From an uncultured Actinomycetes bacterium (GTDB taxonomy: Bacteria; Actinomycetota; Humimicrobiia; Humimicrobiales; Humimicrobiaceae), in assembly GCA_963847665.1 (NCBI GenBank), contig CAWKAO010000003.1:569362-633361 (forward strand): DNA of 64,000 nt, written 5' to 3'. The notes under the pieces were generated by a model that worked only from the letters and a program-made list of their open reading frames with translations, was not told where the DNA came from and ran no database searches. The position numbers were made by a program, and so were the translations under genes. Shown piece by piece: positions 40,731-57,920 of the stretch (its first letter is position 1; each line of letters starts with the position of its first letter).

Positions 40731-41819
40731 ATGCAATTTGAGAATCTAGGTTTTACCCCCGACAAGAAAAGACTGCTTTCAGCTTTAGGAGACGAGATAC
40801 CTGATAAGGTCCCGCTTTTTGACAACTATATCGATGATAAGATCGTAGAAAACATACTCGGTTATAATGCTGGTAATACCTGTGCAGCAGTCGGTGATCC
40901 ATTCAGAGGTGATGAGAGGGCAATAGTCGAAGGTGATGTCTGTGTTCCCATGGATCCTAAGGATTTTATAAAGCTCTGCAATACAATCTGCCAGGATACG
41001 ATCATGCTTGAGCATGCATTCGTTCCTTACAGGATAATAGGTAAAAGCGGCAGGCCCGAAATTATAAATGATGGCAGGATAAAAAACAGGAAAGACTGGG
41101 CAAAAGTCATAATACCCTCAGATGATGATATCAATGAGAGGCTGTTTTACCTGAAAAATTATTTAGAAGCCGTAAAAGGAACTGAAATAGCGGTTACCCT
41201 CCAGACTGGTAATTTTTTTCTCACACATTATCATAACCTGAATGGCTCAGATTTCTTTTCACTTATCTATGACGACCCTGCTCTTGTCCAGGAGATGCTT
41301 ACAGTATCGACAGACTATTTTTCAAAATATGTAAAGGAAGCGCTAAAGCTGGGTTTTGATGTTTTTATGGCCGGTGATGATGTCGCATATAAGAACGGAC
41401 TAATGATAAACCCGGAACATTTCAAGAAGCTTTATAAACCTTTAGCCGAAAAAATATATGAACCGGTACTTAACGCAAATATCCCGATCATGTTTGATTG
41501 CGACGGAAATCCTGAAGAAATAATAGGTATGATAATCGAGCTTGGGTGCAGCTGCCTGTTCCCGATAGATGCAAATGGCATGGATTATAGAGCTGCCAAG
41601 AAAAAATATGGCAAGAAGCTCTGCCTCTATGGAGCAATAGACACGGACCCTCTAATAAGAAATTCAGCCAAAGAAGTCGAGGCTTATGTAAAAGAAGTCG
41701 TCGAAACGATGAAAGTAGGAGGTAAGTATATTGCAGGGACAGTCAGTTCGGTAAACGAGATACCGTTTGAAAACTATGTAACAATGATAAATACAATACA
41801 TAAATACGGGCAATATTAA
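40731..41819 (+). CDS. URO-D superfamily methyltransferase (MtaA/MtbA/CmuA-like corrinoid-dependent methyltransferase)
   Basis: About 360 aa after the internal start MQFENLGF. The profile matches uroporphyrinogen-decarboxylase-like methylcobamide methyltransferases, and the gene sits first in an operon with MttB homologs and a corrinoid protein. Confidence 0.65.
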   Translation: MQFENLGFTPDKKRLLSALGDEIPDKVPLFDNYIDDKIVENILGYNAGNTCAAVGDPFRGDERAIVEGDVCVPMDPKDFIKLCNTICQDTIMLEHAFVPYRIIGKSGRPEIINDGRIKNRKDWAKVIIPSDDDINERLFYLKNYLEAVKGTEIAVTLQTGNFFLTHYHNLNGSDFFSLIYDDPALVQEMLTVSTDYFSKYVKEALKLGFDVFMAGDDVAYKNGLMINPEHFKKLYKPLAEKIYEPVLNANIPIMFDCDGNPEEIIGMIIELGCSCLFPIDANGMDYRAAKKKYGKKLCLYGAIDTDPLIRNSAKEVEAYVKEVVETMKVGGKYIAGTVSSVNEIPFENYVTMINTIHKYGQY

Positions 41820-41839: not shown

Positions 41840-43270
41840 ATGGCAAAAATGGAAGATTACAGGCTTGAAGGTGGCCTGTCAAAACAACAGATGGACCTGA
41901 TGCATGAGAAGGCACTGTGGCTTGTAGAAAATGAAGGGATTCATGTTCCTCACAGGGGTATTTTAAGTCTGCTTTCAGACCATGATGGAGTGAAGATAGA
42001 GGGGGAGACTGTTAAATTTAAATCCGATCTTGTAATGGCCGCTTTAAAGAATGCAAAGTTTCCACTTCCTGAATATGCAAAAGGACCTGATAATTGGGTC
42101 ATCTCTGCGGGTGCACACCAGACAAAGATCTTTGATCTGGAAACAAGAGTATTACGGGAAGCTAAGTTATCTGATCTGGTCGACATGATAAAACTAGGAG
42201 ATGCTTGCGACACAGTGGGTTCAGCTCCTCTTGTACCACTGGATGTACCCCCATATCTTGCAGAGATCTATATGCACAAAACTGCTTATGAATATTCCAG
42301 GTTTAGGGCTAATGATATGTTTGAACATGACCCCAGGCCAACTATAGAAGCTGCAGAGTATATATATGAGATGTCAAAAGTGGCTAAAAAATGGTTTGCG
42401 ATAGGTCTCTATATGATAAGCCCAAGGGGGTTTGATAAAAAAGAACTGGATATAGTCTACAGGTTTTTGGACCGGGGTGTACCGATGTGGGCAGGGACAC
42501 TACCTATTGCAGGAGTAAATGCCCCCATTACGATGATAGGAGCAATGATCCAGAGCATGTTTGAGACTTTTGGATGCCTTGCAATGTTGAACCTGATAAA
42601 TACAAAATCATATAATTACATCCAGGTCATAGACAGTTTTATTGCTCATCCTTTTGATATGAAATATTCGACATTTACCTATGGTTCTGCTGAAGACATA
42701 CAGGGAGCCCTATACAAGATTTCTCTCCATAAATATTACGGTATTCCGATTTCTATAAAATCACTCCTCACCAATGGCAAAGAACCTGGAGATGCACAAT
42801 CTGCATTTGAAATAGCCGCTTTTACTCTTTCAGCAGCCCTGGCAGGAGCAAGGATATTCAGGTGTGCAGGCCTGATGTCAAGTGGCGAGACATATTCTGG
42901 AGAGCAGGTCGTGATTGCCAAAGAGACCGTCGATTATATTAAGAACCTTATAAAATCAAGGGAGTTCTCTGATGAAAGACTGATGGTAGAAGAAATTGCT
43001 GCAGTAAAAGCTGGGCAAAGCTTCATCGGAAGAAAAAGCACCATAGACCATTACAGGACAGAATACTGGCAGCCGGACCTGTTTACGCATTCAAATCTTG
43101 GTCAGTGGCAGGAAATGGGTTCCAGGTCCCTCTGGGATAATGCAAATGCTAAGGTAAAAAAACTGATTAAAGAACACTCTTATATGATAGAAATGGATAA
43201 GAAGCAAGAACTGGATAAGATACTTGAAACAGCGAAAAAAGATACAAAACTTATGGCTGCATATAACTAA
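41840..43270 (+). CDS. MttB-superfamily (trimethylamine-methyltransferase-like) substrate:corrinoid methyltransferase, non-pyrrolysine type
   Basis: 476 aa, the length of MttB/MtgB-family proteins. Uninterrupted ORF with no in-frame TAG. Adjacent to a B12-binding corrinoid protein. About 50-60% identical to the next ORF by eye. Confidence 0.7.
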   Translation: MAKMEDYRLEGGLSKQQMDLMHEKALWLVENEGIHVPHRGILSLLSDHDGVKIEGETVKFKSDLVMAALKNAKFPLPEYAKGPDNWVISAGAHQTKIFDLETRVLREAKLSDLVDMIKLGDACDTVGSAPLVPLDVPPYLAEIYMHKTAYEYSRFRANDMFEHDPRPTIEAAEYIYEMSKVAKKWFAIGLYMISPRGFDKKELDIVYRFLDRGVPMWAGTLPIAGVNAPITMIGAMIQSMFETFGCLAMLNLINTKSYNYIQVIDSFIAHPFDMKYSTFTYGSAEDIQGALYKISLHKYYGIPISIKSLLTNGKEPGDAQSAFEIAAFTLSAALAGARIFRCAGLMSSGETYSGEQVVIAKETVDYIKNLIKSREFSDERLMVEEIAAVKAGQSFIGRKSTIDHYRTEYWQPDLFTHSNLGQWQEMGSRSLWDNANAKVKKLIKEHSYMIEMDKKQELDKILETAKKDTKLMAAYN

Positions 43271-43307: not shown

Positions 43308-44744
43308 TTGATGAAGTTAGAAGAATATAAAGTGAGTGGAGGTTTAAATAAGGAGCAGCTTGATAAGATGAATGAAAATGCATTGTGGTTGTGTGAACAT
43401 GTCGGGATAAATATACCACATGCTGGCATAATAGATATCCTTTCAAGCTATGAAGGAGTAAAGGTCGAAAGTGGAAATTATGTAAGATTCAGTCCAGACC
43501 TTGTAATAAATGCTTTAAAAGAAGCCAAATATGACCTTCCAGAATATGCAAAAGATGAATGGATAATCTCTGCAGGAGCCCACCAGACTGCATGCTATGA
43601 CCTCGATAATATAGGGAGGCTTAAAGAGGCTGAGACAAAGGATCTGATTAATTTTATAAAATTAGGAGATGCTTTAGATACTGTAGGCTCTGCACCTGTT
43701 GTACCACTGGATGTACCTACTCATCTACAGCATATATTGATGCATAAAGTCGCATATGAGAATTCAAGAAGAAGATGCAATGATATTTTTGAGCATATGG
43801 ATAAGCCTACATACGAGTGTGCCATGTATGTCAATGAAATGGCCAAAGTTGCAGGAAAGAGATTTGCGTTTGGAATATGGATGATAAGTCCGCAATCCTT
43901 TGATGCAAAGAATCTGGAGGTTGCTTACAAGATGCTAGATAAAGGTGTACCTATGTGGGTCGCAACAATGCCTGTTGCAGGGGTATCGGCACCGATTACC
44001 ATGCTAGGTGCAGTACAGCAGAGTGTTTTTGAGTATCTCGCAGGTCTTACCATGCTTAATCTAATAAATAAAAAATCCTTTAATTACATTTCTCCTAACG
44101 ATGCATTTGAAGCAGATGCATTTGATATGAAATATTCCACTTTTGTCTATGGTTCAGTCGAATATACGGAACATACTTTATACCAGATCCCGCTCTGCAA
44201 TTACTATAATGTACCTGTTATGACCAAGGCCGCTCTGACAAATTCAAAGCAACCTGATGGCCAGGCAGCAGCAGAGATAGGCATGCATACGCTGATAGCA
44301 TCACTTATGGGGGCCAGAGCGTTCAGATGTGCCGGACTTCTTTCAAGCGGTGAAATATATTCAGGAGAATGGCTGGTTATAAATAAAGAGATAGTCGACT
44401 ATGTAAAAACTATACTTAAACCGCAGGAATTTTCCGAGGAAAGGTTATTAATCGATGAAATAGCTGCAGTAAAGGCTGGAGGTAGTTTTATAGGAAGAAA
44501 GAGCACAATGCAGCTTTTCAGGCAGGAATACTGGATGCCCGAGCTCTTTACCCATATGAACCTTGGACAATGGCAGGAAGCCGGTTCGAAGACGATGTGG
44601 CAGTACGCTCTCGACAGGGCCAAGAAATTAATAAAAGAGCACACTTATCAGATAGATCCTGATAAGAAAAAAGAGCTGGATAAGATATATGAAGCTGCAA
44701 AAAAAGATGCCAAGCTTGAAGATTCTTTCAGAATAAAAGTATAG
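43308..44744 (+). CDS. MttB-superfamily methyltransferase, second tandem paralog
   Basis: 478 aa, colinear with the preceding ORF (shared blocks AGAHQT, LGDA.DTVGSAP.VPLDVP, GRKST...YW.P.LFTH.NLGQWQE). Confidence 0.7.
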   Translation: MMKLEEYKVSGGLNKEQLDKMNENALWLCEHVGINIPHAGIIDILSSYEGVKVESGNYVRFSPDLVINALKEAKYDLPEYAKDEWIISAGAHQTACYDLDNIGRLKEAETKDLINFIKLGDALDTVGSAPVVPLDVPTHLQHILMHKVAYENSRRRCNDIFEHMDKPTYECAMYVNEMAKVAGKRFAFGIWMISPQSFDAKNLEVAYKMLDKGVPMWVATMPVAGVSAPITMLGAVQQSVFEYLAGLTMLNLINKKSFNYISPNDAFEADAFDMKYSTFVYGSVEYTEHTLYQIPLCNYYNVPVMTKAALTNSKQPDGQAAAEIGMHTLIASLMGARAFRCAGLLSSGEIYSGEWLVINKEIVDYVKTILKPQEFSEERLLIDEIAAVKAGGSFIGRKSTMQLFRQEYWMPELFTHMNLGQWQEAGSKTMWQYALDRAKKLIKEHTYQIDPDKKKELDKIYEAAKKDAKLEDSFRIKV

Positions 44745-44822: not shown

Positions 44823-45446
44823 TTGATGTTCGAAGATCTACAGAAAGCAGTTATCGAAGGAAATGAGGAAGAGGGACTTGCCCTGACAAACAAATATTTA
44901 AAAGATGGAAATAAAGCTGAAGATATTATAAAAGAGGGACTGGTCACAGGAATGAATGTCGTGGGAACAAGGTTTAAAGCCTATGAGATGTATCTTCCTG
45001 AGGTAATAATGTCTGCTAATGCAATGAAAAAATCAATGGAGGTGCTAAAACCTCTTATTGCCGAAGGCAGTGTCACTTCACTGGGAAAAATAGTCATAGC
45101 CACAATAGAAGGTGACCTGCATGATATTGGAAAAAATCTTGTATCGATGATGCTTGAAGGAGCCGGATTTGAACTTATAGATCTGGGAGTAGATGTACCG
45201 ATAGGTAAAATTGCGGATGCTGCAGTAAATAATAATGCAAAACTTGTGGCGATCTCCGCCCTGCTTACAACGACAATGATGGCTATGGAACCGGCGATCA
45301 AGGAGATCAAAAGACGGGATTCCGGAATAAAAGTCATGGTCGGCGGTGCGCCTCTTACAATAGATTTTGCGGAAAAAGCTGGAGCTGATGGTTTCGCACC
45401 TGACGCGCTTCGTGCAATAGACCTGGCAAAAAAATTATTAAACTAA
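44823..45446 (+). CDS. corrinoid (cobalamin-binding) protein of methyltransferase systems (MtgC/MtqC/MttC-like)
   Basis: N-terminal B12-binding helical cap plus a Rossmann B12-binding domain with the DxHxxG motif (GDLHDIGKN). Confidence 0.8.
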   Translation: MMFEDLQKAVIEGNEEEGLALTNKYLKDGNKAEDIIKEGLVTGMNVVGTRFKAYEMYLPEVIMSANAMKKSMEVLKPLIAEGSVTSLGKIVIATIEGDLHDIGKNLVSMMLEGAGFELIDLGVDVPIGKIADAAVNNNAKLVAISALLTTTMMAMEPAIKEIKRRDSGIKVMVGGAPLTIDFAEKAGADGFAPDALRAIDLAKKLLN

Positions 45447-45549: not shown

Positions 45550-46977
45550 ATGAAGAAAGCATTACTTATCATTTTGGTAATAGTTTTCACAGTTTCAATG
45601 GTTGCATTCGGAGTAGGCTGCAAACAGCAAGCTGCAGAGATAACTGCAGCTGAGTCGATGAGTGAAGAGACTACTACAGCCGAGACAATGGCTGAAGAAA
45701 CAACTGCAGCAGAAGCCGTAGAACAGAAAGTCTGCAGACTCTGGTTCTGGGGAGAAGATGAAGCTCCGGGGCTTACTGATTTTATGCAGGAAGTCGGGGA
45801 TATGTATACCGAGCAAATCGACCCCAATGTTACATGGGAGATAACACATGTGGATATTGACCAGCTTTATACAGGTTTTTATGCTGCTATAGAGGCAAAA
45901 GATGCACCTGAACTGCATTTGTTATGGGGCGGAGTCTTAGGTCTGGAACCTGCCTGGGCAGGTCTTCTGGCACCTATAAGCGATTATGTATCAGAGGACA
46001 CCCTATCCCACATCAGGCCGATCAACAGACAGGAAGGTTACTGGAACGGACAGCAATGGCTCGTACCCCTTTACCTGGATCCATGGCCATTAGCAATAAA
46101 CAGGCAGGTGTGGACCGACTCAGGTCTTGATCCTGACAATCTACCGGCTACATATGCAGAATTTGTAGAAGCAGTTATAAAAATAAAGGATGCAGGATTT
46201 ACTCCATGGGCTGTTGGTATAAAGGATGGTTACTATGGCGGCTGGTTTCCATCAATTCTTCAGTATCAGTTCTATAACAGCCCAAGTGATTACCACAGAG
46301 CTATAGCTGGTATGGAAGACCTTGGAGCAGCACCACATAGCGACTGGTGGTATCTGCTTGAAGAGCTCTATACTGTAGGTGCTTTTAATTCTGATGTAAA
46401 TTCTTTGAGCCTTGCAGAAGGTCAGGACCTTTTCCTTCAGGGAGATGTCGGAATGGTAATGAATGTTCAACCATCAATATCCTACTACTCTAGGGAGATG
46501 GGCGAAGACATGATAGATGTATTTATTCCACCTGTGGATTCCACAGCGTTTTATGCAGGAAAATGTCCAATACCTATGCAGGCACTTTCTATTCCTGCAG
46601 TAGCTAAGTACAAAGAAGAAGCCGGAAAATTCCTCGAGTTTTTCTACACTGAGGAGATCCAGAATATGCTTTATGAAAAAACTAGCGTATTTCCGGGTTC
46701 TGATTGGCTGGACGGAAATCTTATGAAGAATCCTACTGATGTTAAGCTGTATGACTGGCTCAACAATAATGCTGCAATGACATACGTATGGCAGCATCCA
46801 GGGGCTCTTGAAGAAGCAGCTTACGCTATTACGCAGGAACTGCTTGCAGGAGATATAGATGCGGACCAGGCAGCTCAGAAATATGCAGATGCAGGAGAAA
46901 AGTGGAGAACTGAGAATCCTGAAGCAGTCAAAAACTTTGAGATCTGGGCAAATGAAGATATGCCGTTTATGCCTTAA
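45550..46977 (+). CDS. extracellular solute-binding lipoprotein, ABC family 1 (CUT1-type)
   Basis: Lipobox GVGC, an acidic A/E/T-rich linker, and an SBP_bac_1-like domain. Followed by two MalF/MalG-type permeases. Confidence 0.8.
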   Translation: MKKALLIILVIVFTVSMVAFGVGCKQQAAEITAAESMSEETTTAETMAEETTAAEAVEQKVCRLWFWGEDEAPGLTDFMQEVGDMYTEQIDPNVTWEITHVDIDQLYTGFYAAIEAKDAPELHLLWGGVLGLEPAWAGLLAPISDYVSEDTLSHIRPINRQEGYWNGQQWLVPLYLDPWPLAINRQVWTDSGLDPDNLPATYAEFVEAVIKIKDAGFTPWAVGIKDGYYGGWFPSILQYQFYNSPSDYHRAIAGMEDLGAAPHSDWWYLLEELYTVGAFNSDVNSLSLAEGQDLFLQGDVGMVMNVQPSISYYSREMGEDMIDVFIPPVDSTAFYAGKCPIPMQALSIPAVAKYKEEAGKFLEFFYTEEIQNMLYEKTSVFPGSDWLDGNLMKNPTDVKLYDWLNNNAAMTYVWQHPGALEEAAYAITQELLAGDIDADQAAQKYADAGEKWRTENPEAVKNFEIWANEDMPFMP

Positions 46978-47006
46978 TCTCTATTCAAAGTCAAAAGAAC
47001 TTTAGC

Positions 47007-47036
47007 AGGAAAAGATCTGGTACCGGTAGAATATTA
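47007..47036 (+). terminator. intercistronic stem-loop (12-bp perfect stem) between the SBP and permease genes; partial terminator/attenuator
   Basis: CTGGTACCGGTA gaatat TACCGGTACCAG, followed by a T-rich but interrupted tail. Confidence 0.4.
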
Positions 47037-47081
47037 CCGGTACCAGAAAGAAGTTTGTAGTTTTATTTGGTTATTTAATAT

Positions 47082-47963
47082 ATGAAGAATAAAAAAAGAG
47101 AAAATCTAAAAGGTTTTTTATTTATTGGTCCTACGTTGGTATTTATACTGATAGTATATTTTTATCCACTTGTCCAGAATTTTATTTACAGCCTTAGAGA
47201 CCTGAGTCTTCCCGGAAGGCCTTTTTCAGGTTTCAGGAACTATTACCTTATGTTTAATGATGAGATCTTCTGGATATCCATTAGAAACAATGCAATATTG
47301 ATCTTTGTATTGGTACCTTTACTTGTATTTATATCACTTATATTTTCAGTACTTCTTTTTGAAAGGATAAAAGGTTGGAAGTTTTACCGCGGTACACTGC
47401 TTCTTCCATATATAACATCTATAACTGCAGTCGGTCTTTTCTTTTCCCTCTTTTTCCAGGGTAGAGGAATGCTAAACACTTTCTTCAAATTTATCCATCT
47501 AGACTTCCTGGTAGTAGACTGGCTCGGTTCAACTAAATTCGCCCTGCCTGCGATTATGCTTGTGATTCTATGGAGAGAGTTTGGATTTGGTACGATGCTC
47601 TTTCTTGCAAGGCTGACTACTGTGTCAGAAGAACTTTTTGATGCTGCAAAGATAGATGGTGCAAACTGGTTCCAAAGGCTGATACATGTAGTGATACCAC
47701 AGCTCGGTACTGTTATAGAGTTCTATGTATTCATTATGATAGTCACAATGCTTAGCTGGGTGTTCAATTATGTTTATGTAATGACCCTGGGAGGACCTGC
47801 AAGGAGTACATATGTGACTGAACTTTATATATTCCTGGAGGCATTTAAGATGAACAGGATGGGAGTCGCTGCGGCAGTTTCAATAATGCTTTTTATAATC
47901 ACTGCAGTACTTGCATTTGCATCCTATAAGTTCAGGACGAGGCTTTATCGTGAATACGATTAA
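47082..47963 (+). CDS. ABC transporter permease (MalF/UgpA-like)
   Basis: 6 TM helices with the EAA-loop region (LFDAAKIDGAN). Confidence 0.85.
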   Translation: MKNKKRENLKGFLFIGPTLVFILIVYFYPLVQNFIYSLRDLSLPGRPFSGFRNYYLMFNDEIFWISIRNNAILIFVLVPLLVFISLIFSVLLFERIKGWKFYRGTLLLPYITSITAVGLFFSLFFQGRGMLNTFFKFIHLDFLVVDWLGSTKFALPAIMLVILWREFGFGTMLFLARLTTVSEELFDAAKIDGANWFQRLIHVVIPQLGTVIEFYVFIMIVTMLSWVFNYVYVMTLGGPARSTYVTELYIFLEAFKMNRMGVAAAVSIMLFIITAVLAFASYKFRTRLYREYD

Positions 47964-47977
47964 AGAAAGTTAAATCT

Positions 47978-48847
47978 ATGAAAGACGCAAAAATTAAGAA
48001 AGTAAAACAAAAAATAACAGCCAGAAGAGTCTTTGCAGAGATACTAAGGCAGTTTTTACTTATTGTTGCGGTAGGTATTGTGCTTACTCCAATTGCCTAT
48101 ATTATAATAGCATCTTTCAAGACAAAAATGGATTATGTCAAAAACCAGATCGGATTGCCAAATCCATTTGTCCTGGATAACTACAAAGCACTCTTTGCAG
48201 ATGGCCAGTTACTTATCTGGTTTAAAAATTCAGCAATAGTCACAATAATCTCTGTTGCTTTATCTATTATAATTGCAGCGATAGCTGCATATGCATTTAG
48301 CAGGATAAATTTTATCGGTAGAGAAAAAATATTTAATTTTATAATCGCACTTATGATAATACCGCCAATCGTTATGATAATACCTCTTTTCGTGCTTGCT
48401 ACAAGAGCACACCTTGTAAACACTTACTGGAGCGCAATATTGATCTATACGGGACTTATGCTTCCATTTAACATTTATCTCTTGCGTAATTTCTTTGTGA
48501 CCATCCCTGAGTCTATAGTAGATTCTGCCAGGATGGACGGGTGTGGTGACTGGGGGATCTTCATGAGGATAATAATCCCCCTGTCAAGGTCAGCACTGAT
48601 CACCCTTATAGTCGTCAGTGTGCTCTGGGTCTGGAACGAGCTTCTTATTGCACTTATATTTCTACAGAGAGAAGAGCTTACTACTCTTATGGTAGGCCTG
48701 ATTAGATTTCAGGGAAGGTTCAGGGTAAACCAGCCTGTAATACTTGCTGGCATTTTTGCTTCTATGGTGCCAATGATAATAATCTATCTTATCGGTCAGA
48801 GATTCTTTGTAAGAGGTCTGACAGCTGGTGCCTTGAAGGGTGAATAA
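47978..48847 (+). CDS. ABC transporter permease (MalG/UgpE-like)
   Basis: 6 TM helices with EAA-like DSARMDGCG. Confidence 0.85.
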   Translation: MKDAKIKKVKQKITARRVFAEILRQFLLIVAVGIVLTPIAYIIIASFKTKMDYVKNQIGLPNPFVLDNYKALFADGQLLIWFKNSAIVTIISVALSIIIAAIAAYAFSRINFIGREKIFNFIIALMIIPPIVMIIPLFVLATRAHLVNTYWSAILIYTGLMLPFNIYLLRNFFVTIPESIVDSARMDGCGDWGIFMRIIIPLSRSALITLIVVSVLWVWNELLIALIFLQREELTTLMVGLIRFQGRFRVNQPVILAGIFASMVPMIIIYLIGQRFFVRGLTAGALKGE

Positions 48848-48920
48848 AAAGAAAAAATAATAAAATGTCCGATTTTTGTGATTTAGAATAAAATATCTAA
48901 AAAAAATTCCTGGAGGAGAA

Positions 48921-50046
48921 ATGAAAAAGGATAATAAAAGGACTGTAGAGATCGAAATAAAGATAAAACAGGTTAGGGAAGTCATAGGATCTAATGATCT
49001 TTCAGGAATCCTGCTAACACAACAGTATAATATTTACTGGCTGACGGCGGGAGGCAATAACCATGTCCTCTGGGATGATCAGTATGGTATTATCGGTATC
49101 CTTATAACCAATGACAGAGCTATAGTACTGGCTGAAAACGGTGATATCTGGAGGGTAAGGGATGAGGAATTTTTTAATTATCCTTTCGAATATATTAAAT
49201 ACGAATGGTATGCTTCAAACCATGCAGCTGAAGCAAAAAAGATCGCAGGGAATGGCAGGTTTGGAACTGATTCTTTCAATCCCGGATTTGATGACCAGGT
49301 AGATATCAATCCGTTATTGAGCCCATACAGGTCAGTCTTTCAGCCATATGAGGCCGAGAGGTATTTAAAACATGGCAGGTTCATTGCAAGAGTGATAACA
49401 GATGTATGTATGTCATCCAAACCTGGAATGCGGGAAAACGAGATCGCTGCAATGTTTGCATCTGAAAGCATAAAAAATAACTATACTATATTTGTCCAGC
49501 TTCTAGGCAGCGATGAAAGATCACTCAAATACAGGCATCAGGTCGTTACGGATAAAAGAATGGAAAAGCATTACAGTTTTTGTGGAGTAGCAAGATACCA
49601 GGGATTTACCTATCCTGTCAACAGGGTCGTATCATTTGGAGAGCCGGATAAAAAACTTCAGGAAAACAACAGGAAAATAGAGACTGTTTATGCACTTCTT
49701 AATAAAAATGCGAAAATAGGCACAAACCTCAGTGAAATATATAAAAAACTGCCAGATATTTATGAGACGGCTGGAATTGAAGAAAGATGAATGGAGGAAC
49801 CATTCTATAGGTGGCACAACAGGATACATGCCGCGTGAAAACCAGCTTATGGATGGTGTAGACTACGAAATAAGGGAAAACAATATGATAGGCTGGAACC
49901 CTTCCCTTCCGGGAGTAATGGCTGAAGATGTCTATTTCAGGACTAAAGATGATATGGAGTTTGTCACCTGGGACGACAGGTGGCCCTCACAAAAAGTAGA
50001 TGCTGAAGGTGAAGAGGTGATCCGTCCTGCAATACTGGTCTTATAG
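48921..50046 (+). pseudogene. M24-family creatinase/prolidase-like hydrolase, frameshifted at about 49785 (extra A in an A-run)
   Basis: ORF 48921-49790 has a creatinase-N-like domain plus the start of the pita-bread domain. ORF 49732-50046 carries the C-terminus (WRNHSIGG...). Removing one A from GAAGAAAGATG restores AGIEEDEWRNHSIGG. The canonical metal-binding His/Glu residues are only partly conserved. Confidence 0.7.
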
Positions 50047-50116
50047 CTCAATGATCATAAATAATTAAAATGTTCGTTATTTTATACTAGTAAGAAAATA
50101 AGAAAGCAGGCTGTTA

Positions 50117-50497
50117 ATGAGGTTGATAGATTCAAGATTTTTAAGAGATGGCGCTGTAGATCATCCTTATGAGGATAATCCCGGTTTTATTGCAAAGATC
50201 AATACATTCTTTTACTCCAGGGATAAAAAATCTGTCATGGGATACTGGGAAGCACCGGTGGGCTGGTTTACTGCTGAGATAGGGGAGCAGAGTGAATTAA
50301 ACTATATTGTTGAGGGTAGCATAGAGTTGATCGATCTCAAAACGCAAGAAAAGAAGATCACTGCTAAAAAAGGAGATGTTTTTCTTGTAGAACCGGGTGA
50401 TGATCTTAAGTGGGTCGTGACAGACCCGATCAGGACGATCTTCTTCATCTATCCCGCTTCTAAGGAAATTGTAGATTTTTTCAAAAGTTTAAAATAA
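50117..50497 (+). CDS. small cupin-fold protein
   Basis: 126 aa with a typical cupin beta-barrel pattern (GDVFLVEPGDDLKW). Confidence 0.5.
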   Translation: MRLIDSRFLRDGAVDHPYEDNPGFIAKINTFFYSRDKKSVMGYWEAPVGWFTAEIGEQSELNYIVEGSIELIDLKTQEKKITAKKGDVFLVEPGDDLKWVVTDPIRTIFFIYPASKEIVDFFKSLK

Positions 50498-50527
50498 CTA
50501 TATGATCATCAAAAAGAGGTGAAAAAA

Positions 50528-51553
50528 ATGCTTAAAATGGGAATCATAGGTATGGGGAAAATGGCGGTAGCGCATGCTGATTGGATCATAGCCAATAAGG
50601 ATATGGAACTTGTAGCAATATGTGAAAAGAACGAAGCAAGGCATGAAGAGATAAAAAAGCAGTACAATGTACCTGTTTTTTCTGATGTAGATGAAATGCT
50701 GAAAACTACCGGTCTTGACATGGTGGTGATAGTCACCACAAATGAGGTACATGAGATGCTGACCATAAAAGCACTCAACAGTGGAAAAGATGTAATCGTT
50801 GAAAAACCCATGAGCATATCTTATGAGAGTACCCAAAAGATGATAAAAGCAGCAGAAAAAAATAAAAAACAGATCTTTGTCCACCAGTCAAGCCGATGGG
50901 ACAGGGATTTTCTTTTAATAAAAGACATGATAGCTTCAGGACTTATAGGCGATATCCTGGTCTTAAAGACTTTTGTGATGTACTGTGATGAAGGATGGCC
51001 CAGCTGGGGAATAGACGGTATGGGGAATCCATGGAGGATAAAAAAAGAATTTTACGGAGGCATGCTTCTTGACTGGGGTCCTCATCTTGTGGACCAGACA
51101 ATCCAGATAATGGGAAAAGACCCTGCAGGAGTCTATGGCATTCTCCAGAATGCAGTCTGGTCAAAAGAAGTGGACGATCATTTTTTGGCAATTCTTAAAT
51201 ATGATAATAATGTGTACTGCCAGCTTGAATGCAGTAATAACAGCAGGATAACACTTCCAAGATGGCATATCATAGGTACAAAGGGCACCATTGAAGTCAA
51301 GGGCAAACCCGAACCATTCTGGGATGAAGTCGAAATCAATTATATTAAAAAGAACGGAAAAAATGACATCCAGACCACAAAACTGGTCGGTATTAAAGAA
51401 TCAGGTCTTGAAGGCGGTTTTTATGATGACCTGATACCATATATGAAAGGCAAAAAGAAGGCTTTTGTCACGATGTATGAAGCAAGTAAGGTCATAAGGG
51501 TACTTGACCTTATCAGGGAGTCCAGCGAAAAAGGTGCTTTTATAAAATTTTGA
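50528..51553 (+). CDS. Gfo/Idh/MocA-family NAD(P)-dependent oxidoreductase
   Basis: N-terminal Rossmann GIIGMGKMA and a C-terminal Gfo/Idh/MocA domain. ATG at 50528 is preceded by SD AGAGGTG. Confidence 0.8.
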   Translation: MLKMGIIGMGKMAVAHADWIIANKDMELVAICEKNEARHEEIKKQYNVPVFSDVDEMLKTTGLDMVVIVTTNEVHEMLTIKALNSGKDVIVEKPMSISYESTQKMIKAAEKNKKQIFVHQSSRWDRDFLLIKDMIASGLIGDILVLKTFVMYCDEGWPSWGIDGMGNPWRIKKEFYGGMLLDWGPHLVDQTIQIMGKDPAGVYGILQNAVWSKEVDDHFLAILKYDNNVYCQLECSNNSRITLPRWHIIGTKGTIEVKGKPEPFWDEVEINYIKKNGKNDIQTTKLVGIKESGLEGGFYDDLIPYMKGKKKAFVTMYEASKVIRVLDLIRESSEKGAFIKF

Positions 51554-51584
51554 TAAATATTTTTCAGAAAGAGGAGCAGATAAA

Positions 51585-52941
51585 ATGTCAAAGAGAGCGG
51601 CACAATGGGGCGAGGAAGCAAAGACAATTTCAAAAATACTTGAGAAATCTCCTGATATAGACAAATCAAAGAGGATAACAACAGCAGAATTTAAAAAGCG
51701 ACAGCAGAATGTCATGGATGCTCTTTCTGCAAATGGAATAGACTGTGCATTTGTATACTCGAATGAACATTATAACGGGGATGTACCCTATCTGGGGGGA
51801 AATACAAACATCTCTATAGAACCGGTTGCAGGTGTTATCGGTAAGGGTGGTTTTCATATGCTTGCAGGACTGGAGGGCGGTTATGTAGCTGAGCAGCTTG
51901 CCGGAAGGGCAGGGATCAAGGTCCATAAAGTAGAGATGCTCAAGCTTGCTGATGAGGAATATCCGGTGGACGCAGAAAAGTTCGAGGATGTCATTGAAGA
52001 GGCAGCTGGAGGAAGGCCAAAAGTAGTAGGGTTGCTTACACCAAGGGCGGTCTTTCCGGTAGATATGTATGAATTCATTCTTGAATATCTTGGCAGTTCA
52101 GGAAAAGTGGTCGATGCCCAGGAACTTTACTATAAGATCAAATATGAAAAAAGTGAAATGGAAATGGACCTTATAAGGGATGCAAGCCTCATCTGTGATG
52201 AGATGCTAAAAGGGATGCTTGCAGTATTAAAACCCGGGATGCTGGAAACGGAAGTAGCGGGCTGGGGATATGCAATAGGCCAGGAGCTTGGTTCTGAAGA
52301 ATTTGGATTTGATGTAATGGTGACAGCAAATGAGGCAAACAGGACCCTTATAGGCAAAGCTTTAAACCGCCCGATAATCGAAGGTGATATTGTACATCTC
52401 GGAGTTGCCCCAAAAAGAGATGGACTTACCGCTTGTGAGCGGGTAAGCGTTGTCGCAACATCATGACCCTAAAAATATAACATCGCAGCAGAAATACTGG
52501 ATCAGTTTTATTGAAGAAGCTTTTAAAGTCGGTCTTGAAGCATATAAAAAAGTCGCTGCTGAAAATCTTCCTGCAAAACTGCAGGAGCAGGCTCTTGAAA
52601 ACTATTTTAAATCCAGGGAAGAAGAAGTGTCAAAAATGATCGGGAAAAAGATAGACCTGGTAAGGCAAAAACCATATACAGGCACACATAATGCGGGTTA
52701 TACAGAATGCCAGGAATTCTATGGTGCAATAACCCTTAACTCAGAAGAACCGCTTGGTAACAGGATAGTGACAATGCTCGATGTCGCTGTAAGGGGAGTC
52801 GGAAATAAATGGGATGATATCGTCATCCCTGGTCTTGATTTTGTACTTGTAGAAAAGACTCTCGGTAAGTTCGGTAAACAGGTGGAAGTATTAAATAAGT
52901 TACCAATAAATGTACAGCATCTGGTCGGGGCAAGGTATTGA
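51585..52941 (+). pseudogene. second M24-family creatinase-like hydrolase, frameshifted near 52450-52462
   Basis: ORF 51585-52466 has the creatinase-N domain plus the first half of the pita-bread fold. ORF 52450-52941 in the +1 frame carries the remainder (YTGTHNAGYTECQEF...). Confidence 0.7.
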
Positions 52942-52981
52942 AAAGAAATTATAGAATTATTAGTCAGGAGGAAAATAAAAA

Positions 52982-53944
52982 ATGGGTGAAGAACTTAAAA
53001 AGGAATTGCTGTTAAGTCTCTATGAGGGAATGCTGAAAATAAGACTATTTGAACGGACACAGTCAAAAGTCTATAAAACCGAACAGGAAGGTTTTACGCA
53101 TCTTTATATCGGGGAAGAGGCCATAGCCACTGGTGTCTGCGCAAATCTAAATAAAGATGATTACATCACAAGCACACATAGAGGGCACGGGCATATGATT
53201 GCCAAAGGTGGAAATATGAAAAAGATGATGGCTGAACTCTATGGAAGGATCGACGGCACCTGCAAGGGTAAAAGCGGCTCCCTGCACATAGCCGACTTCA
53301 GTATCGGGGTGCTTGGTGCAAACGGGATTGTAAGTGCAGGGATTCCTATAGCGACAGGAGCCGGGTATTCCATAAAATATAGAAATACAAAACAGGTGGC
53401 AGTTGCATTTTTTGGTGATGGTGCGACAACCCAGGGAGGTTTTCATGAAGCTGTAAATATGGCAGCAGCTTGGGAGCTACCGGTAGTCTTTGTAATAGAG
53501 AACAACATGTATCTTGTCGGAACCCGTTTTGACAGGGTCTGCAAGGTCTGTGACAATCTTGCCGCCAAAGCAGCAGGTTATGGCATACCGGGTTTTAACC
53601 TCGATGGAAACGATGTTGAAGAAGTATACAAGTTTTCAAAAGAAGCAATAGAAAGAGCAAGGAGCGGAAATGGTCCGACACTTCTTAACTGCTTTACATA
53701 CAGACAGCATACCCATTTTGAAGGAGACCTTGATGTGAGGGATAAAAAAGAAGTCGAGGAATGGCTTGCAATGGACCCGGTAAAGAGATTTGAGGAAAAA
53801 TTGCTTAAAGAAAAGGTAGTGGATGAAAAAACCATCAAGGATTACAGGGAGAGGGTTCAGAAAATGGTCGATGAAGCGGTAGACTTTGCAAGAAAGAGCC
53901 CAAAACCCACACCGGATATTGCGGTTGAAGACGCATATGTTTAA
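52982..53944 (+). CDS. TPP-dependent 2-oxoacid/acetoin dehydrogenase E1 alpha subunit
   Basis: TPP-binding motif GDGATTQG...NN and an E1 alpha fold. Length is 320 aa. Confidence 0.85.
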   Translation: MGEELKKELLLSLYEGMLKIRLFERTQSKVYKTEQEGFTHLYIGEEAIATGVCANLNKDDYITSTHRGHGHMIAKGGNMKKMMAELYGRIDGTCKGKSGSLHIADFSIGVLGANGIVSAGIPIATGAGYSIKYRNTKQVAVAFFGDGATTQGGFHEAVNMAAAWELPVVFVIENNMYLVGTRFDRVCKVCDNLAAKAAGYGIPGFNLDGNDVEEVYKFSKEAIERARSGNGPTLLNCFTYRQHTHFEGDLDVRDKKEVEEWLAMDPVKRFEEKLLKEKVVDEKTIKDYRERVQKMVDEAVDFARKSPKPTPDIAVEDAYV

Positions 53945-53983
53945 AAAAATATTCTTAAGAATTTTTATCAGGGAGGATAAATA

Positions 53984-54958
53984 ATGATAGAGCTATCTTA
54001 CAGAGAAGTGATCAGGGAAGCAATGCGGGAAGAAATGAGAAGGGATAAAAGTATCTTCATTCTGGGGACAGATGTCGGGCCCTATGGTGGAGAGTTCAGG
54101 GTAACGGGTGATCTCCATTCTGAATTTGGTGAATGGCGCGTAAAGGACACACCCATATCGGAGCAGGCTATAATCGGCTGCAGTCTTGGTGCTGCGGTTA
54201 CAGGTCTGCGTCCTATTGCTGAAATACCTTTTAATGATTTTATCGCCATGCCGATGGATCAGATCGTCAACCAGGTCGCAAAATTCCGCCATACTTTTGG
54301 GGGCCAGTGCACAGTCCCGCTGGTAATAAGGACTGCGATCGGAGGGTATATCAGGGCTGCCCAGCAGCATTCGCAGTGCCTTGAAGCGTGGTTTGTACAT
54401 GTGCCCGGTTTAAAAGTCGTTGCGCCTTCTACCCACTACGATGCAAAGGGCCTGCTTAAGACAGCTATCCGTGATGATAACCCGATTATTTTTATAGAAC
54501 ATAAATATATGTATCCCATGAAAGGTATGGTACCCGAGGAAGAGTATACTATCCCACTTGGTGTCGCTGATATCAAGAAAGAAGGAAAAGATGTCACACT
54601 TATATCCTACTCATATCTTATCCATAAATGTTTAAGTGTTGCAAATAAACTGGAGAAAGAAGGTATTTCTGTTGAGGTGGTCGATCCAAGGACACTATCT
54701 CCTCTTGATAAGGATACCATACTGGGCTCGGTTAAAAAGACTGGTAGAGCGGTTGTAGCGCATGAAGCCCATCTGAGGGGCGGAGTAGGCGCAGAGATTG
54801 CAGCGATCATCGCTGATGAAGGTTTTGAATATCTTGACGCGCCGGTAAAAAGAGTCGGTGCAAAGGATACACCGATACCATTTCCTTCTGTTCTTGAAGA
54901 TGTAGTACTTCCGCAGGAAGCAGATATCGAAAATGCAATAAGGGAAACATTAAAATAA
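53984..54958 (+). CDS. 2-oxoacid/acetoin dehydrogenase E1 beta subunit (transketolase-like)
   Basis: 324-aa transketolase Pyr and C-terminal domains. No E2 or E3 genes follow. Confidence 0.85.
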   Translation: MIELSYREVIREAMREEMRRDKSIFILGTDVGPYGGEFRVTGDLHSEFGEWRVKDTPISEQAIIGCSLGAAVTGLRPIAEIPFNDFIAMPMDQIVNQVAKFRHTFGGQCTVPLVIRTAIGGYIRAAQQHSQCLEAWFVHVPGLKVVAPSTHYDAKGLLKTAIRDDNPIIFIEHKYMYPMKGMVPEEEYTIPLGVADIKKEGKDVTLISYSYLIHKCLSVANKLEKEGISVEVVDPRTLSPLDKDTILGSVKKTGRAVVAHEAHLRGGVGAEIAAIIADEGFEYLDAPVKRVGAKDTPIPFPSVLEDVVLPQEADIENAIRETLK

Positions 54959-55162: not shown

Positions 55163-55945
55163 ATGAACCCAGATATTTTAAACAAAAAACATCTTATTAA
55201 TAATCTTGAGAATAATATTTATAATTTCAAGCTGAATATCGCAAGGTCCTCAAATAAGATCGTCAATGTACAGCCTTTTTTCAAATGGGTAAATTGTGCT
55301 CCATCGAGATGGCCGAACCAGATACTCGATGTTAATATAAGTGATGACATCGTGGATGAAAAGATAGATTACATAAAAGAAAATATACTCAAAGGCGACG
55401 CTCCAAATTACCTCTTTCTCGGACCAAGGGCATATTCAAAAAGGTTTGAAACACAGCTGTTAAGAAAAGGTTTTACACAATTTACCCGCTGGTCCGGCAT
55501 GATATTGAAGCTGGAAGATAGAAATGTTTTTCCTGGATCCATAGAGGATTTCAAAATAAAGACTGTAAGTAGTATTGGTGAACTTAAAATATGGTCCTCA
55601 ATTCTTAATGAAGCTATGTTTGGCGGCGGTTTTGAGGGCGCGGATCTATTTGCTAACTTATATAAGACCAGTGATGTAATTCTATATCTGGGGATGTATG
55701 GGGATACGCCTGTTGCGACATCCTGTGTTTTTTTTGACTCAAAGATAGCAGGGCTTTTTCTTATATCGACAAGGCCGGAATACAGAAATAGGGGATTTGG
55801 AACAAGGATGACAGCTGCCCCATTGGATGCTGCCAGCAAGAAAGGCATTATCTACTCAGGTCTTTATGCAACTGTTTTGGGTGAGAGGGTATACAAAAAA
55901 TTAGGTTTTTCAAAATATTGTGATTTTTTTATATATTACATCTGA
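55163..55945 (+). CDS. GNAT-family N-acetyltransferase with an N-terminal extension
   Basis: C-terminal motif A RNRGFG and a GNAT fold. The N-terminal roughly 140 aa are of unknown function. Confidence 0.55.
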   Translation: MNPDILNKKHLINNLENNIYNFKLNIARSSNKIVNVQPFFKWVNCAPSRWPNQILDVNISDDIVDEKIDYIKENILKGDAPNYLFLGPRAYSKRFETQLLRKGFTQFTRWSGMILKLEDRNVFPGSIEDFKIKTVSSIGELKIWSSILNEAMFGGGFEGADLFANLYKTSDVILYLGMYGDTPVATSCVFFDSKIAGLFLISTRPEYRNRGFGTRMTAAPLDAASKKGIIYSGLYATVLGERVYKKLGFSKYCDFFIYYI

Positions 55946-56023
55946 TTAATATATTGGAGTTTATTAATAAGCTTTACAGTTATAAAATTAGCAGTATAGA
56001 AATATTAAGTAGTAGGGATATAA

Positions 56024-56863
56024 GTGGCTGGTCAAACAGATAAAATTATAATCAAAGACCCGGACCTGATAATGGATAACAAAAAAAAGGTGCATCTTCT
56101 GGATACCAGCAGCGACTTATATGATGATATAGCTTTAAGAATGATAAGCAAGTTAAAAGAAAACAATGATAAAAATAAAAGTACAGTATTTATCTTACCC
56201 GTCGGACCAAGGGGCCAATATGTCAGATTTGCCCGGAGATGCAATGAAGAGAATATCCCTTGCAGCAATCTGGTAACAATCAATATGGATGAATTTTTAG
56301 ATGAGAACGATAACTATTTTCCTGAATCCAGTCCTTTTAGCTTCAGGGGCTTTATGAAAAAAAACCTTTTTGATCTGCTGGAAGAAAATGTAAAAATAAA
56401 ACCAGAAAATATTATTTTTCCTGACCCAGTAGATCCAGGACGGATATATGAACTTCTAACCAATTTTAAAGGAGCTGATATCTGCTTTGCCGGTGTAGGG
56501 ATCAATGGCCATATAGCTTTCAATGAACCTTTATCGGAAAAGCAAATATCAGCTGTAGAATTTAAAAAACTAAGGACCAGGATCTTAGATCTTGATAAAG
56601 AGACTATTATAATGACCAGTTTAAAGCATGGGGGACATATAGAAAAAATCCCCGGAAGGTGTATTACGATCGGGATTGCAGAAATAATGTTATCAAAGGA
56701 GATCAGTATTTATCTTGAACATGCTCATCAGGCTGCTATTTTTGAAAAAATATTACACTATCAGCAGACACCCGAGTGTCCGGTCACACTATTAAAGGAT
56801 CACCCTGGTTTTTCCTTAACGATAACAAGAGAGGTCCTTGATAGTTTCAAAAAAAATAATTAA
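56024..56863 (+). CDS. glucosamine-6-phosphate deaminase/isomerase (NagB) family protein
   Basis: Motifs PVGPRG and GVGINGHIAFNEP are typical of the NagB / 6-phosphogluconolactonase family. Confidence 0.7.
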   Translation: MAGQTDKIIIKDPDLIMDNKKKVHLLDTSSDLYDDIALRMISKLKENNDKNKSTVFILPVGPRGQYVRFARRCNEENIPCSNLVTINMDEFLDENDNYFPESSPFSFRGFMKKNLFDLLEENVKIKPENIIFPDPVDPGRIYELLTNFKGADICFAGVGINGHIAFNEPLSEKQISAVEFKKLRTRILDLDKETIIMTSLKHGGHIEKIPGRCITIGIAEIMLSKEISIYLEHAHQAAIFEKILHYQQTPECPVTLLKDHPGFSLTITREVLDSFKKNN

Positions 56864-56879: not shown

Positions 56880-57920
56880 ATGAGTGAAAAAATGAAAGCA
56901 TTGCGAAAGTTAAAAGAAGGTAAAGGAAATATGGCCATAGAAGAGGTGCCAATTCCTGATATAAAACCACATGAAGTCCTGATGAAAGTCTGGGCAGCCG
57001 GGGTATGCGGTAGTGACCTGCTTATAGAGGACGACAAGCATTTCTACAAAGCACCGGTCACGCTTGCCCATGAGTTTTCAGGGGTTGCTTACAGGGTAGG
57101 AAGCGATGTAAAAAATATAAAAGAAGGTGACCACATAGTCGCAGATATAGAAACTGAGACCGGGTGGCTTGGTGTCACGAGGGATGGTGCATATGCACCT
57201 TTTATGTCACTTCCAGAAAGAGTCGCATACAAGGTACCAGCTGATTTTAATCTTGACTATGCTGCGATGACAGAGCTTGTAACAGCGATCATACACATAA
57301 TGCAGGAACGTACAAATGTCAAAGCAGGGGATTTTGTCGTTGTGGTCGGCCCGGGGCCTATGGGACTTTTAGGGGTCCAGTTTGCAAAGATAAGGGGAGC
57401 TTCAAAAGTAGCATTAATAGGGCTTAAAAAGGACCAGAAGAGGCTTGATATCGGAAAGAAGACAGGTGCAGACTATATCCTTTATTCTGATGAAAACCCT
57501 GAGAAGAAAATAATGGAACTGACAGATGGCATGGGAGCTGATTATGTACTTGAAGCAGCAGGTGCAAGGAAAGGAAATAATATTGTTGGTGCACAGCATG
57601 CAATAGATTGCGCAAGGCGCGCATATGAAGGTCCCGGCGGTAAGGGTCAATGTGCATTTATAAGTCTCTGGGGTGAACCGATAGCACTTGATTTTGACCA
57701 GGTCTGCCTGGGCCAGCTTGAAATACATGGAAGCTGGAGCTGGAACGGTTCAGAGACATGGAAGAGGGCAGTTAATCTGATAACTGGTGGAGTATTTGAT
57801 CTTGAACCTTTGCTTACCGGCAGGTTTGAGCTGGATGAATGGAAAACTGCCTTCCAGAACCTTAGGGATGGAAAGGACATCAAGGCACTGATTTACCCGA
57901 ATGGAAAAGACTGGTTGTAA
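56880..57920 (+). CDS. zinc-dependent alcohol/polyol dehydrogenase (MDR family)
   Basis: GVCGSDL...HE motif and a GPGPMG Rossmann fold. Confidence 0.8.
   Translation: MSEKMKALRKLKEGKGNMAIEEVPIPDIKPHEVLMKVWAAGVCGSDLLIEDDKHFYKAPVTLAHEFSGVAYRVGSDVKNIKEGDHIVADIETETGWLGVTRDGAYAPFMSLPERVAYKVPADFNLDYAAMTELVTAIIHIMQERTNVKAGDFVVVVGPGPMGLLGVQFAKIRGASKVALIGLKKDQKRLDIGKKTGADYILYSDENPEKKIMELTDGMGADYVLEAAGARKGNNIVGAQHAIDCARRAYEGPGGKGQCAFISLWGEPIALDFDQVCLGQLEIHGSWSWNGSETWKRAVNLITGGVFDLEPLLTGRFELDEWKTAFQNLRDGKDIKALIYPNGKDWL

Follow-up and report, generated by a model that had tools for sequence, protein, structure and literature searches.

What pathway is served by a gene cluster in which two proteins of the M24 fold, a Gfo/Idh/MocA-family dehydrogenase and an orphan E1 alpha/beta pair are encoded downstream of a corrinoid methyltransferase set? 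The question is raised by positions 48921–54958 of a 64,000-nucleotide stretch of DNA from an uncultured Actinomycetes bacterium of the Humimicrobiaceae (contig CAWKAO010000003.1, positions 569,362 to 633,361); the whole stretch that was analysed is called the window here. A sequence-only reading had taken the M24 proteins for creatinase- or ectoine hydrolase-like enzymes working together with the methyltransferases. The link of the M24 genes to METHYLTRANSFERASES is real. From the gene layout and the promoter, positions 48921–54958 are predicted to be the distal part of one LacI-controlled catabolic operon (about 40.6–57.9 kb), and the gene context suggests that this operon may serve the catabolism of a methylated carbohydrate-like compound. 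This reading, its two parts taken jointly, is given an even chance of being right.

The linkage of the M24 genes to the MttB/corrinoid genes, proposed by the sequence-only reading, is borne out by an operon-like layout and by synteny that is kept across two phyla despite rearrangement. Orthologues of the small M24 protein (at least 48% identity) lie in seven informative loci, from Humimicrobiia-like Actinomycetota and Spirochaetota metagenome-assembled genomes (MAGs; L001, L006/L011, L007, L009, L010, L012 and L013), and all seven carry the genes for MttB1, MttB2 and the corrinoid protein within 10 kb, in shuffled order. Most also carry LacI, Gfo, the large M24 protein, E1 alpha/beta, the URO-D-like protein and the Zn-dependent dehydrogenase, in several orders. 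Gfo orthologues were seen in eight related loci (59–80% identity) and those of the Zn-dependent dehydrogenase in L001, L004, L006, L012, L013 and L089 (55–77%), while LacI orthologues (53–64%) flank the cluster in L004, L006, L007, L009, L012 and L013. The conserved module runs past 54958, the Zn-dependent dehydrogenase gene (56880–57920) being a conserved member in relatives; the cupin is a variable accessory, present in L010 and L093 and absent from L001. In a scan of GTDB genomes the closest were Spirochaetota (48–55% identity). Distant homologues of the small M24 protein (25–33% identity; cyanobacteria, Omnitrophota, Trueperaceae and others) had no MttB or corrinoid protein neighbours.

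The large M24 protein and MttB are linked a second time, and independently, in an unrelated low-GC metagenome lineage. There, in L141 (9004–16786) and L148, a row of genes encodes Gfo, the large M24 protein, MttB, an Amidohydro_2 protein, a GH63/mannosylglycerate hydrolase-like enzyme and URO-D, the MttB gene lying directly 3' of the large M24 gene; a corrinoid protein gene was not detected nearby. URO-D homologues adjoin the large M24 gene in L005, L091 and L141, with no corrinoid protein nearby. Among the neighbours of the large M24 gene in 46 metagenome loci of at least 8 kb were Gfo (11 loci), PIG-L deacetylase (9), E1 (5), MttB (5–6), NagB-like proteins (5) and ROK (4), and further DegT aminotransferases, RpiB and glycoside hydrolases.

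The module also occurs without methyltransferases. L089 (6692–20702; the same in L090) encodes LacI, a small M24 protein, Gfo, the large M24 protein, a CUT2 importer of the monosaccharide ATP-binding cassette (ABC) type, E1 alpha, E1 beta, a lipoyl protein, the Zn-dependent dehydrogenase, a SIS enzyme and a hexokinase, and has neither MttB nor a corrinoid protein; the small M24 protein of these loci is a divergent subtype (22% identity). Since the module is found in this form, the MttB set looks like an add-on for the methylated form of the substrate, and to judge from gene content it is best seen as having adapted a pre-existing pathway to a methylated substrate. The lipoyl protein of L089/L090 is free-standing, 84 aa long, and takes the place of a full E2; their hexokinase is a kinase of the eukaryote-type hexokinase family.

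The prediction of a single operon is drawn from a co-oriented layout, a promoter with an adjoining palindrome and the lack of a convincing internal terminator. The genes from 40731 to 57920 have one orientation throughout, with intergenic gaps of 14–204 nt. A sigma-70 consensus promoter, TTGACA-17-TATAAT, matches at 12 of 12 positions (40593–40621, plus strand), and directly 3' of it, facing the divergent LacI gene, is a perfect 16-bp palindrome, TTCCACAATTGTGGAA (40630–40645). Found once in exact form in the window and embedded in a 26-bp near-palindrome, it is likely to be a LacI-type operator, a putative assignment. It is not kept in relatives; at the equivalent intergenic position the Spirochaetota loci have another palindrome, TGGCAACGTTGCCA. 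The terminator scan gave no convincing plus-strand terminator between the operon genes.

The gene content and coordinates of 48921–54958 were confirmed by the listing of open reading frames (ORFs) and by domain searches. The order was corrected: rather than two M24 genes followed by the rest, as first stated, it is small M24, cupin, Gfo, large M24, E1 alpha, E1 beta.

Table 1. Genes of the predicted operon and its regulator, with window coordinates and the matches on which each name is based
Feature	Coordinates	Strand	Matches and remarks
LacI-family repressor	39664..40599	-	divergent from operon; NCBIfam RbsR/PurR-type matches, E 5e-62
URO-D/MtaA-family protein, possible corrinoid methyltransferase partner	40731..41819	+	NCBIfam MtaA/CmuA E 2e-13, far under cut-off
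MttB1, non-pyrrolysine MttB-superfamily methyltransferase	41840..43270	+	TIGR02369 E 5e-50, under equivalog cut-off
MttB2, MttB-superfamily methyltransferase	43308..44744	+	60% identity to MttB1; TIGR02369 E 6e-56
Cognate corrinoid protein	44823..45446	+	NCBIfam MtgC-like E 1e-57, pyl_corrinoid E 2e-52; DxHxxG as DLHDIG
CUT1-type sugar ABC importer	45550..48847	+	SBP_bac_1 binding protein 45550-46977; permeases 47082-47963, 47978-48847
Small M24B-fold protein	48921..50046	+	split 48921-49790 + 49732-50046 (+1 frame); repaired length 374 aa
EutQ-like Cupin_3 protein	50117..50497	+	Pfam Cupin_3 E 2.6e-10
Gfo/Idh/MocA NAD(P) oxidoreductase, inositol/sugar dehydrogenase type	50519..51553	+	Pfam E 5e-30
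Large M24B-fold protein	51585..52941	+	split 51585-52466 + 52450-52941 (+1 frame); repaired length 451 aa
Thiamine pyrophosphate-dependent E1 alpha, 2-oxoacid/acetoin dehydrogenase type	52982..53944	+	Pfam E1_dh E 1e-85
E1 beta, 2-oxoacid/acetoin dehydrogenase type	53984..54958	+	Pfam Transket_pyr and Transketolase_C E 1e-41
GNAT acetyltransferase, lineage-specific addition	55163..55945	+	Pfam GNAT matches ~1e-6
NagB-like glucosamine-6-phosphate deaminase homologue, lineage-specific addition	56024..56863	+	NCBIfam nagB E 2e-27, under cut-off; PDB NagB E 1e-17
Zn-dependent dehydrogenase, Tdh / scyllo-inosose 3-dehydrogenase IolM-like	56880..57920	+	NCBIfam tdh 7e-51, IolM 4e-47, both under cut-offs

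The methyltransferase part of the cluster recalls the MtgB/MtgC, MtpB, MtcB, MtyB and Eubacterium limosum choline systems, in which an MttB-fold enzyme with no in-frame UAG adjoins a DxHxxG corrinoid protein; like these non-pyrrolysine systems it belongs to anaerobic bacteria, and methyl transfer to Co(I) is presumed. MttB1 and MttB2 have no in-frame UAG either. Unlike the known systems, the enzymes here always form a tandem pair, 60% identical, and are distant from the solved MttB and MtgB (E ~1e-20). They also stand in a predicted LacI-regulated operon with a sugar importer, M24 proteins, dehydrogenases and an E1, a context for which no paper was found, and in place of a pterin-binding second methyltransferase they have a URO-D-like partner. 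The only sequence match of that partner in the PDB is the chloromethane methyltransferase CdmB (E 0.002). The residues of MtgB that bind glycine betaine are Y97, R312, H348 and F356, two of which hold the carboxylate (PMC13080624). They align to A, M, R and G in MttB2, and the M position is S in MttB1 as read by eye; on this alignment, both proteins are without the four glycine betaine residues of MtgB.

Two further methyltransferase-type genes were seen. One is a third, divergent MttB homologue (26% identity to MttB2), encoded after an Opp-type importer on the downstream side of the cluster in a Spirochaetota MAG (L009, 17738–19168). In the window, a stand-alone homocysteine S-methyltransferase domain protein (24023–24946, minus strand; Pfam S-methyl_trans E 2e-60) could in principle accept a methyl group from a methyl-corrinoid, but it lies 16 kb off and on the opposite strand.

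A carbohydrate-like substrate is favoured because the module can stand alone, because its components are of sugar type and because the large M24 gene lies in many carbohydrate-type loci. The components in question are the RbsR-like LacI repressor, the oligosaccharide-type binding protein (SBP_bac_1 E 2e-21; the nearest solved binders take xylo-oligosaccharides or other sugars, 4g68, E 3e-17), the IolG-like Gfo protein, the IolM/Tdh-like Zn-dependent dehydrogenase, the NagB-like protein and, 3' of the Zn-dependent dehydrogenase gene, a convergent phosphofructokinase gene and a ROK-family gene. The NCBIfam matches of the Gfo protein are all under their cut-offs (IolG 1e-32, UDP-GlcNAc 3-dehydrogenase 7e-33, levoglucosan dehydrogenase 5e-19). 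In the Thermotoga-type inositol pathway an IolG dehydrogenase of the Gfo family and the Zn-dependent dehydrogenase IolM act ahead of ring opening. The present cluster resembles it in its IolG-like Gfo protein, its IolM-matching Zn-dependent dehydrogenase, its LacI repressor and its sugar ABC importer; it differs in that the scores are far under the equivalog cut-offs, that homologues of IolN and IolO were not identified and that the E1 and M24 proteins have no counterpart there.

The CUT1 importer has no ATPase gene of its own in the cluster and may use the stand-alone MalK/MsiK-type ABC ATPase (ABC_tran, OB_MalK and TOBE domains) that is encoded 27 kb upstream, at 18635–19813. A GC-rich hairpin with a 13-bp stem (47016–47047), scored by the terminator scan on the minus strand only, separates the gene of the binding protein from that of the first permease. 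Hairpins of this kind can lengthen the life of the binding-protein message.

The E1 pair is closest in kind to the acetoin dehydrogenases. The thiamine motif of E1 alpha, GDG-x26-NN, is visible in the sequence; E1 beta scores over the NF006667 subfamily cut-off and E1 alpha under both equivalog cut-offs for pyruvate dehydrogenase. As in acetoin dehydrogenase (AcoA/AcoB/AcoC) with butanediol dehydrogenase, an E1 alpha/beta pair with an intact thiamine motif is accompanied by a Zn-dependent dehydrogenase and, in relatives, by a lipoyl E2 or carrier, and this likeness suggests a thiamine pyrophosphate (TPP)-dependent cleavage next to a carbonyl. E2 is encoded in the clusters of L004, L006, L012, L013 and L097, in addition to the lipoyl-only protein of L089/L090 mentioned above; E3 was seen in no cluster, whether of the window or of its relatives. 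Unlike the acetoin system, the E1 genes here stand among Gfo, M24 and URO-D genes with no E2 or E3 in the window, E1 alpha falls short of the pyruvate dehydrogenase cut-offs and the substrate would presumably be a larger hydroxyketone.

The M24 proteins themselves were compared by fold and by sequence. The AlphaFold 2 (AF2) models of both have the two-domain M24B fold, with local confidence scores (pLDDT) of 94.5 for the small and 83.0 for the large protein. In Foldseek searches of the PDB both models gave template modelling (TM) scores of 0.6–0.78 to prolidases and creatinases alike (about 0.7 for both), and the structural neighbours, namely prolidases, aminopeptidase P, creatinases, DoeA and DddP, had near-equal scores. 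The models align over 370–450 columns to the creatinases 7yto, 1kp0 and 1chm, and equally to prolidases; the top matches were prolidases (1wy2, 7e-21, for the small protein and 3q6d, 6e-22, for the large), with similar scores for creatinases. With phmmer against the PDB (E<=1) prolidases and aminopeptidase P were the only matches besides DoeA, whose chains 6twk and 6twj match the large protein at E 0.77–0.79 and the small one not at all, and which ranks 24–41 by fold. The NCBIfam creatinase model matched neither protein. The specific creatinase or ectoine hydrolase identity of the sequence-only reading was therefore not upheld, as alignments and fold searches single out neither and prolidases rank equal or higher. 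Of the creatinase-type N-terminal domain ascribed to both proteins, the part concerning the small protein stands (Pfam Creatinase_N, E 3.4e-6) and that concerning the large one does not, as it has no such match; moreover, the domain is not diagnostic of creatinase because it is common to prolidases and aminopeptidase P. Nor could the two proteins be called paralogues: their families align with an hhalign probability of 1.2%, so that no kinship is demonstrable past the common fold.

Both families are well populated. The small M24 protein has 65 homologues, nearly all intact and of 372–374 aa, with the subfamily motifs H-S-x-G-G-x-T-G-Y and W-N-P-S. The large one has more than 2199, with 70–86% identity in the top 120 of the listing, where MAGs of Actinomycetota, Firmicutes and Clostridiaceae are represented, and 60–86% among the relatives examined; its motifs are A-N-R-T-L-I-G-K and Y-T-G-T-H-N-A-G-Y-T-E-C-Q-E-F. 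The sequence-only reading also held that the metal ligands were incomplete in both, and on this point ligand mapping agrees. Against the dinuclear ligands of E. coli methionine aminopeptidase (MetAP; D97, D108, H171, E204 and E235), the small protein has a deletion, P232, H294, N326 and E335 (family alignment, hhalign probability 85%), and its H206 aligns to MetAP H79, a histidine common to all M24B enzymes. In the large protein the first Asp ligand is replaced by an invariant G273 and the second position is an invariant C284-E285; H368, D399 and E423 are invariant and are put at the remaining ligand positions by motif only. On this mapping the classical dinuclear site cannot be assembled in either protein, although the large one might retain one metal site in altered form. 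Both proteins thus fall short of the five-ligand set, in keeping with the earlier claim that they are not classical dinuclear Xaa-Pro peptidases, and the two large families so annotated are very probably not peptidases. The one part of the large protein that AF2 cannot place is the invariant loop YTGTHNAGYTECQEF. Residues 364–384 of the repaired protein, the best conserved segment of the family (YTGTHNAGYTECQEFYGAITL, with hardly any variation across 24 diverse sequences), form the only long region of the model whose pLDDT falls below 50, a hint that this loop depends on a metal or ligand.

Both M24 genes are broken by one +1 shift each, as had been noted at the outset, but this is not special to them. 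When the DNA is aligned with the orthologues on a related contig of 351 kb (L001), the extra base of the small M24 gene falls near 49782 and that of the large one near 52460–52464, in both cases outside any long homopolymer. The joined proteins align gap-free across the junctions and have exactly the lengths of intact homologues, 374 and 451 aa. Three more genes of the window are split in the same way: ApbE (8467–9003/8912–9229), a Zn-dependent alcohol dehydrogenase (28960–29775/29678–29983) and an enoate reductase-like gene with Oxidored_FMN and Pyr_redox domains (61003–62160/62135–63148). Their breaks fall at about 8900–8950 (between IKNPFD and VKVIYL), 29670–29700 and 62150–62160, respectively. 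In all, 5 of about 55 genes in 64 kb are broken, in one direction throughout and never in a long homopolymer, at least three of them being unrelated to M24; no motif shared by the five insertion sites was seen by eye. Identity to orthologues is 80–86% after the break against 72–76% before it in the small M24 protein and 78–85% against 77–86% in the large, and the segments after the break have no further stops and retain all family-invariant residues. Two further long contigs of ENA assemblies, L001 and L004, both named in the Flye style, likewise have fragmented genes; relatives from other projects are intact. Since orthologues are intact, conservation after the break is equal and unrelated genes are hit alike, an error of the assembly consensus is likelier than decay and is the most likely cause.

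True pseudogenes, in a pathway decaying in this strain and a cluster that is a relic here, would account for single-base insertions in both M24 genes and three others within 64 kb, outside long homopolymers, and the shared direction of all five shifts is odd for random sequencing noise. The explanation is nonetheless unlikely, as the stop-free, fully conserved segments after the breaks, the similar rate in unrelated genes (ApbE, the alcohol dehydrogenase and the enoate reductase-like gene, a likely housekeeping one among them) and the confinement of fragmentation to the Flye-style ENA contigs all speak against it. Programmed +1 ribosomal frameshifting, with a zero-frame TGA at the shift site as in release factor 2 (RF2), is suggested by the junctions AGA TGA A and TCA TGA C of the M24 genes and by a third, TGG TGA T, in the enoate reductase-like gene. 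An early stop after a random +1 shift is, however, to be expected in DNA of 40% GC; the closest orthologues (76–84% identity) stay in one frame through the same position, the ApbE and alcohol dehydrogenase breaks are not at stop codons, and reading of the junctions gave neither a shared slippery motif nor an upstream Shine-Dalgarno-like element, so that frameshifting is extremely improbable. The frequent gene-splitting single-base insertions of this assembly matter to its annotators.

In the pathway proposed for the operon, the gene products would fall into two parts: the URO-D-like protein, the two MttB paralogues and the corrinoid protein on the one hand, and the importer with a carbohydrate-type breakdown module (small M24, Gfo/Idh/MocA, large M24, E1 alpha/beta and the Zn-dependent dehydrogenase) on the other. 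The imported compound would be methylated and carbohydrate-like; amino sugars, cyclitols, inosamines, glycosides and glycated amines with N-methyl or possibly O-methyl groups are the candidates. The MttB pair would transfer the methyl groups of this compound to the corrinoid protein. The Gfo and Zn-dependent dehydrogenases, being IolG- and IolM-like, would then oxidise vicinal hydroxyls to an alpha-hydroxyketone or diketone, beside whose new carbonyl the E1 pair would make a TPP-dependent C–C cleavage like that of acetoin dehydrogenase; the acceptor of the acyl unit would be an E2 or lipoyl carrier, which is encoded in the clusters of relatives but not in this window. The M24-fold enzymes may hydrolyse C–N bonds of the amide or amidine type rather than act as peptidases, and the NagB-like deaminase with the flanking ROK-family and phosphofructokinase genes could route the remainder to glycolysis. 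That the MttB methyltransferases demethylate a carbohydrate-derived compound (methylated amino sugar, cyclitol or glycoside) while the metal-poor M24 pair and the E1 act on the sugar skeleton is a tentative proposal, to which clearly less than an even chance is given. Pinitol-type O-methyl-inositols, rhizopine-type inosamines, Amadori and Heyns compounds, mycosporine-like amino acids, glycerophosphocholine and guanidino-cyclitols were weighed as substrates; each fits some components and none is claimed.

Several points weigh against this account. The operon is a prediction from its layout, and the class of methylated carbohydrate-like compounds is drawn from context. The Pfam scan of the window's larger ORFs gave no E2, E3 or lipoyl protein, so that the E1 pair is orphan as the sequence-only reading had described it, and the scanned ORFs include neither a pterin-type second methyltransferase nor a RamA-type activase. 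By eye, the zinc motif of MtaA is not evident in the URO-D-like protein, which has FDCDGN in place of H-x-C. The characterised non-pyrrolysine MttB enzymes act on small quaternary amines, and to our knowledge none acts on a sugar derivative. The importer varies in type among the loci (CUT1, CUT2 and Opp-type), so that the transported molecule may vary too, or be peptide-like in some lineages. As for the M24 proteins, the hydrolysis of C–N bonds is pure inference, and the alignment of the large M24 family to MetAP, with an hhalign probability of 4%, covers the N-terminal part only, H368, D399 and E423 having been placed by motif.

Other pathways were considered. In the sequence-only reading the M24 enzymes would open an amidino or cyclic amine compound as creatinase or ectoine hydrolase does, and an N-methyl product such as sarcosine would then be demethylated by MttB, or the order would be reversed. 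Like creatinase and DoeA, the non-peptidase members of M24B, both proteins combine a creatinase/prolidase N-domain with a pita-bread domain and have lost the dinuclear ligand set; creatinases and DoeA are among the structural neighbours of the models, the MttB linkage is conserved, and the frequent PIG-L deacetylase beside the large M24 gene elsewhere loosely recalls the hydrolase-plus-deacetylase logic of DoeA/DoeB. Yet the pair is no closer to creatinase and DoeA than to prolidases by fold and is more distant by sequence, with no creatinase in the PDB at E<=1 and DoeA just at E 0.77, and it forms subfamilies of its own in a carbohydrate-type context. The regulator, importer, dehydrogenases and downstream genes are of carbohydrate or amino-sugar type, the module occurs with a divergent small M24 protein and no methyltransferase beside a SIS enzyme and a hexokinase, the glycine betaine residues of MtgB, including the two that hold the carboxylate, are replaced in MttB1/2, neither the window nor the related loci showed a sarcosine oxidase or urease, and nearby genes included none for sarcosine or glycine cleavage. 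A creatinase-type reaction that feeds sarcosine to MttB is thus very improbable.

Alternatively, the M24 proteins may be unusual peptidases acting on peptides with N-methylated or betaine-type residues, MttB stripping the N-methyl groups from the freed amino acids. Xaa-Pro peptidases, enzymes that handle tertiary amide bonds, are the classical bearers of the M24B fold; the L141 cluster has an M18 aminopeptidase in its vicinity; and in L007, L009 and L010 the genes after the cluster encode importers of the Opp/Dpp type (SBP_bac_5 with two permeases and two ATPases). Opp-family binding proteins, however, transport oligosaccharides as well in several anaerobes, and the window and most relatives have sugar-type importers and LacI. 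The peptidase ligands are missing (two of five are present in the small M24 protein, and the large one is without the first Asp), and the Gfo, Zn-dependent dehydrogenase and E1 proteins would have no obvious role in the breakdown of peptides. This alternative is, on balance, improbable.

The component families are all known, while their combination, conserved in two phyla, is undescribed as far as searched. No publication on the cluster was found, as the sequence-only reading had supposed for the coupling of M24 enzymes to an MttB/corrinoid system; searches for MttB with Xaa-Pro, creatinase, M24, acetoin dehydrogenase or LacI, or for pinitol with corrinoid demethylation, gave nothing relevant. 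The preprint of Kountz and Balskus on an "mlp" cluster (PMC10418091) was considered as a possible description and rejected, as no M24, MttB or sugar genes are mentioned in it. Elsewhere in the window, a protein of archaeo-eukaryotic release factor family 10 (baeRF_family10, 37011–37865, E 4e-11) adjoins nrdR and plsY-like genes.

Substrates are missing for most non-pyrrolysine MttB homologues, and finding them matters for the cycling of methyl groups and methane precursors in anoxic habitats. A comparison of the module versions with and without methyltransferases should show the methylated and the unmethylated form of one substrate. If the reading of the operon as serving a methylated carbohydrate-like compound is true, MttB chemistry, so far known only for small free amines, would reach a further class of substrates; the 451-aa "M24 metallopeptidase" family, widespread and with more than 2000 members, would be a carbohydrate-pathway enzyme and not a peptidase; and two families of "Xaa-Pro peptidases" would be re-assigned, within an anaerobic pathway not described before.

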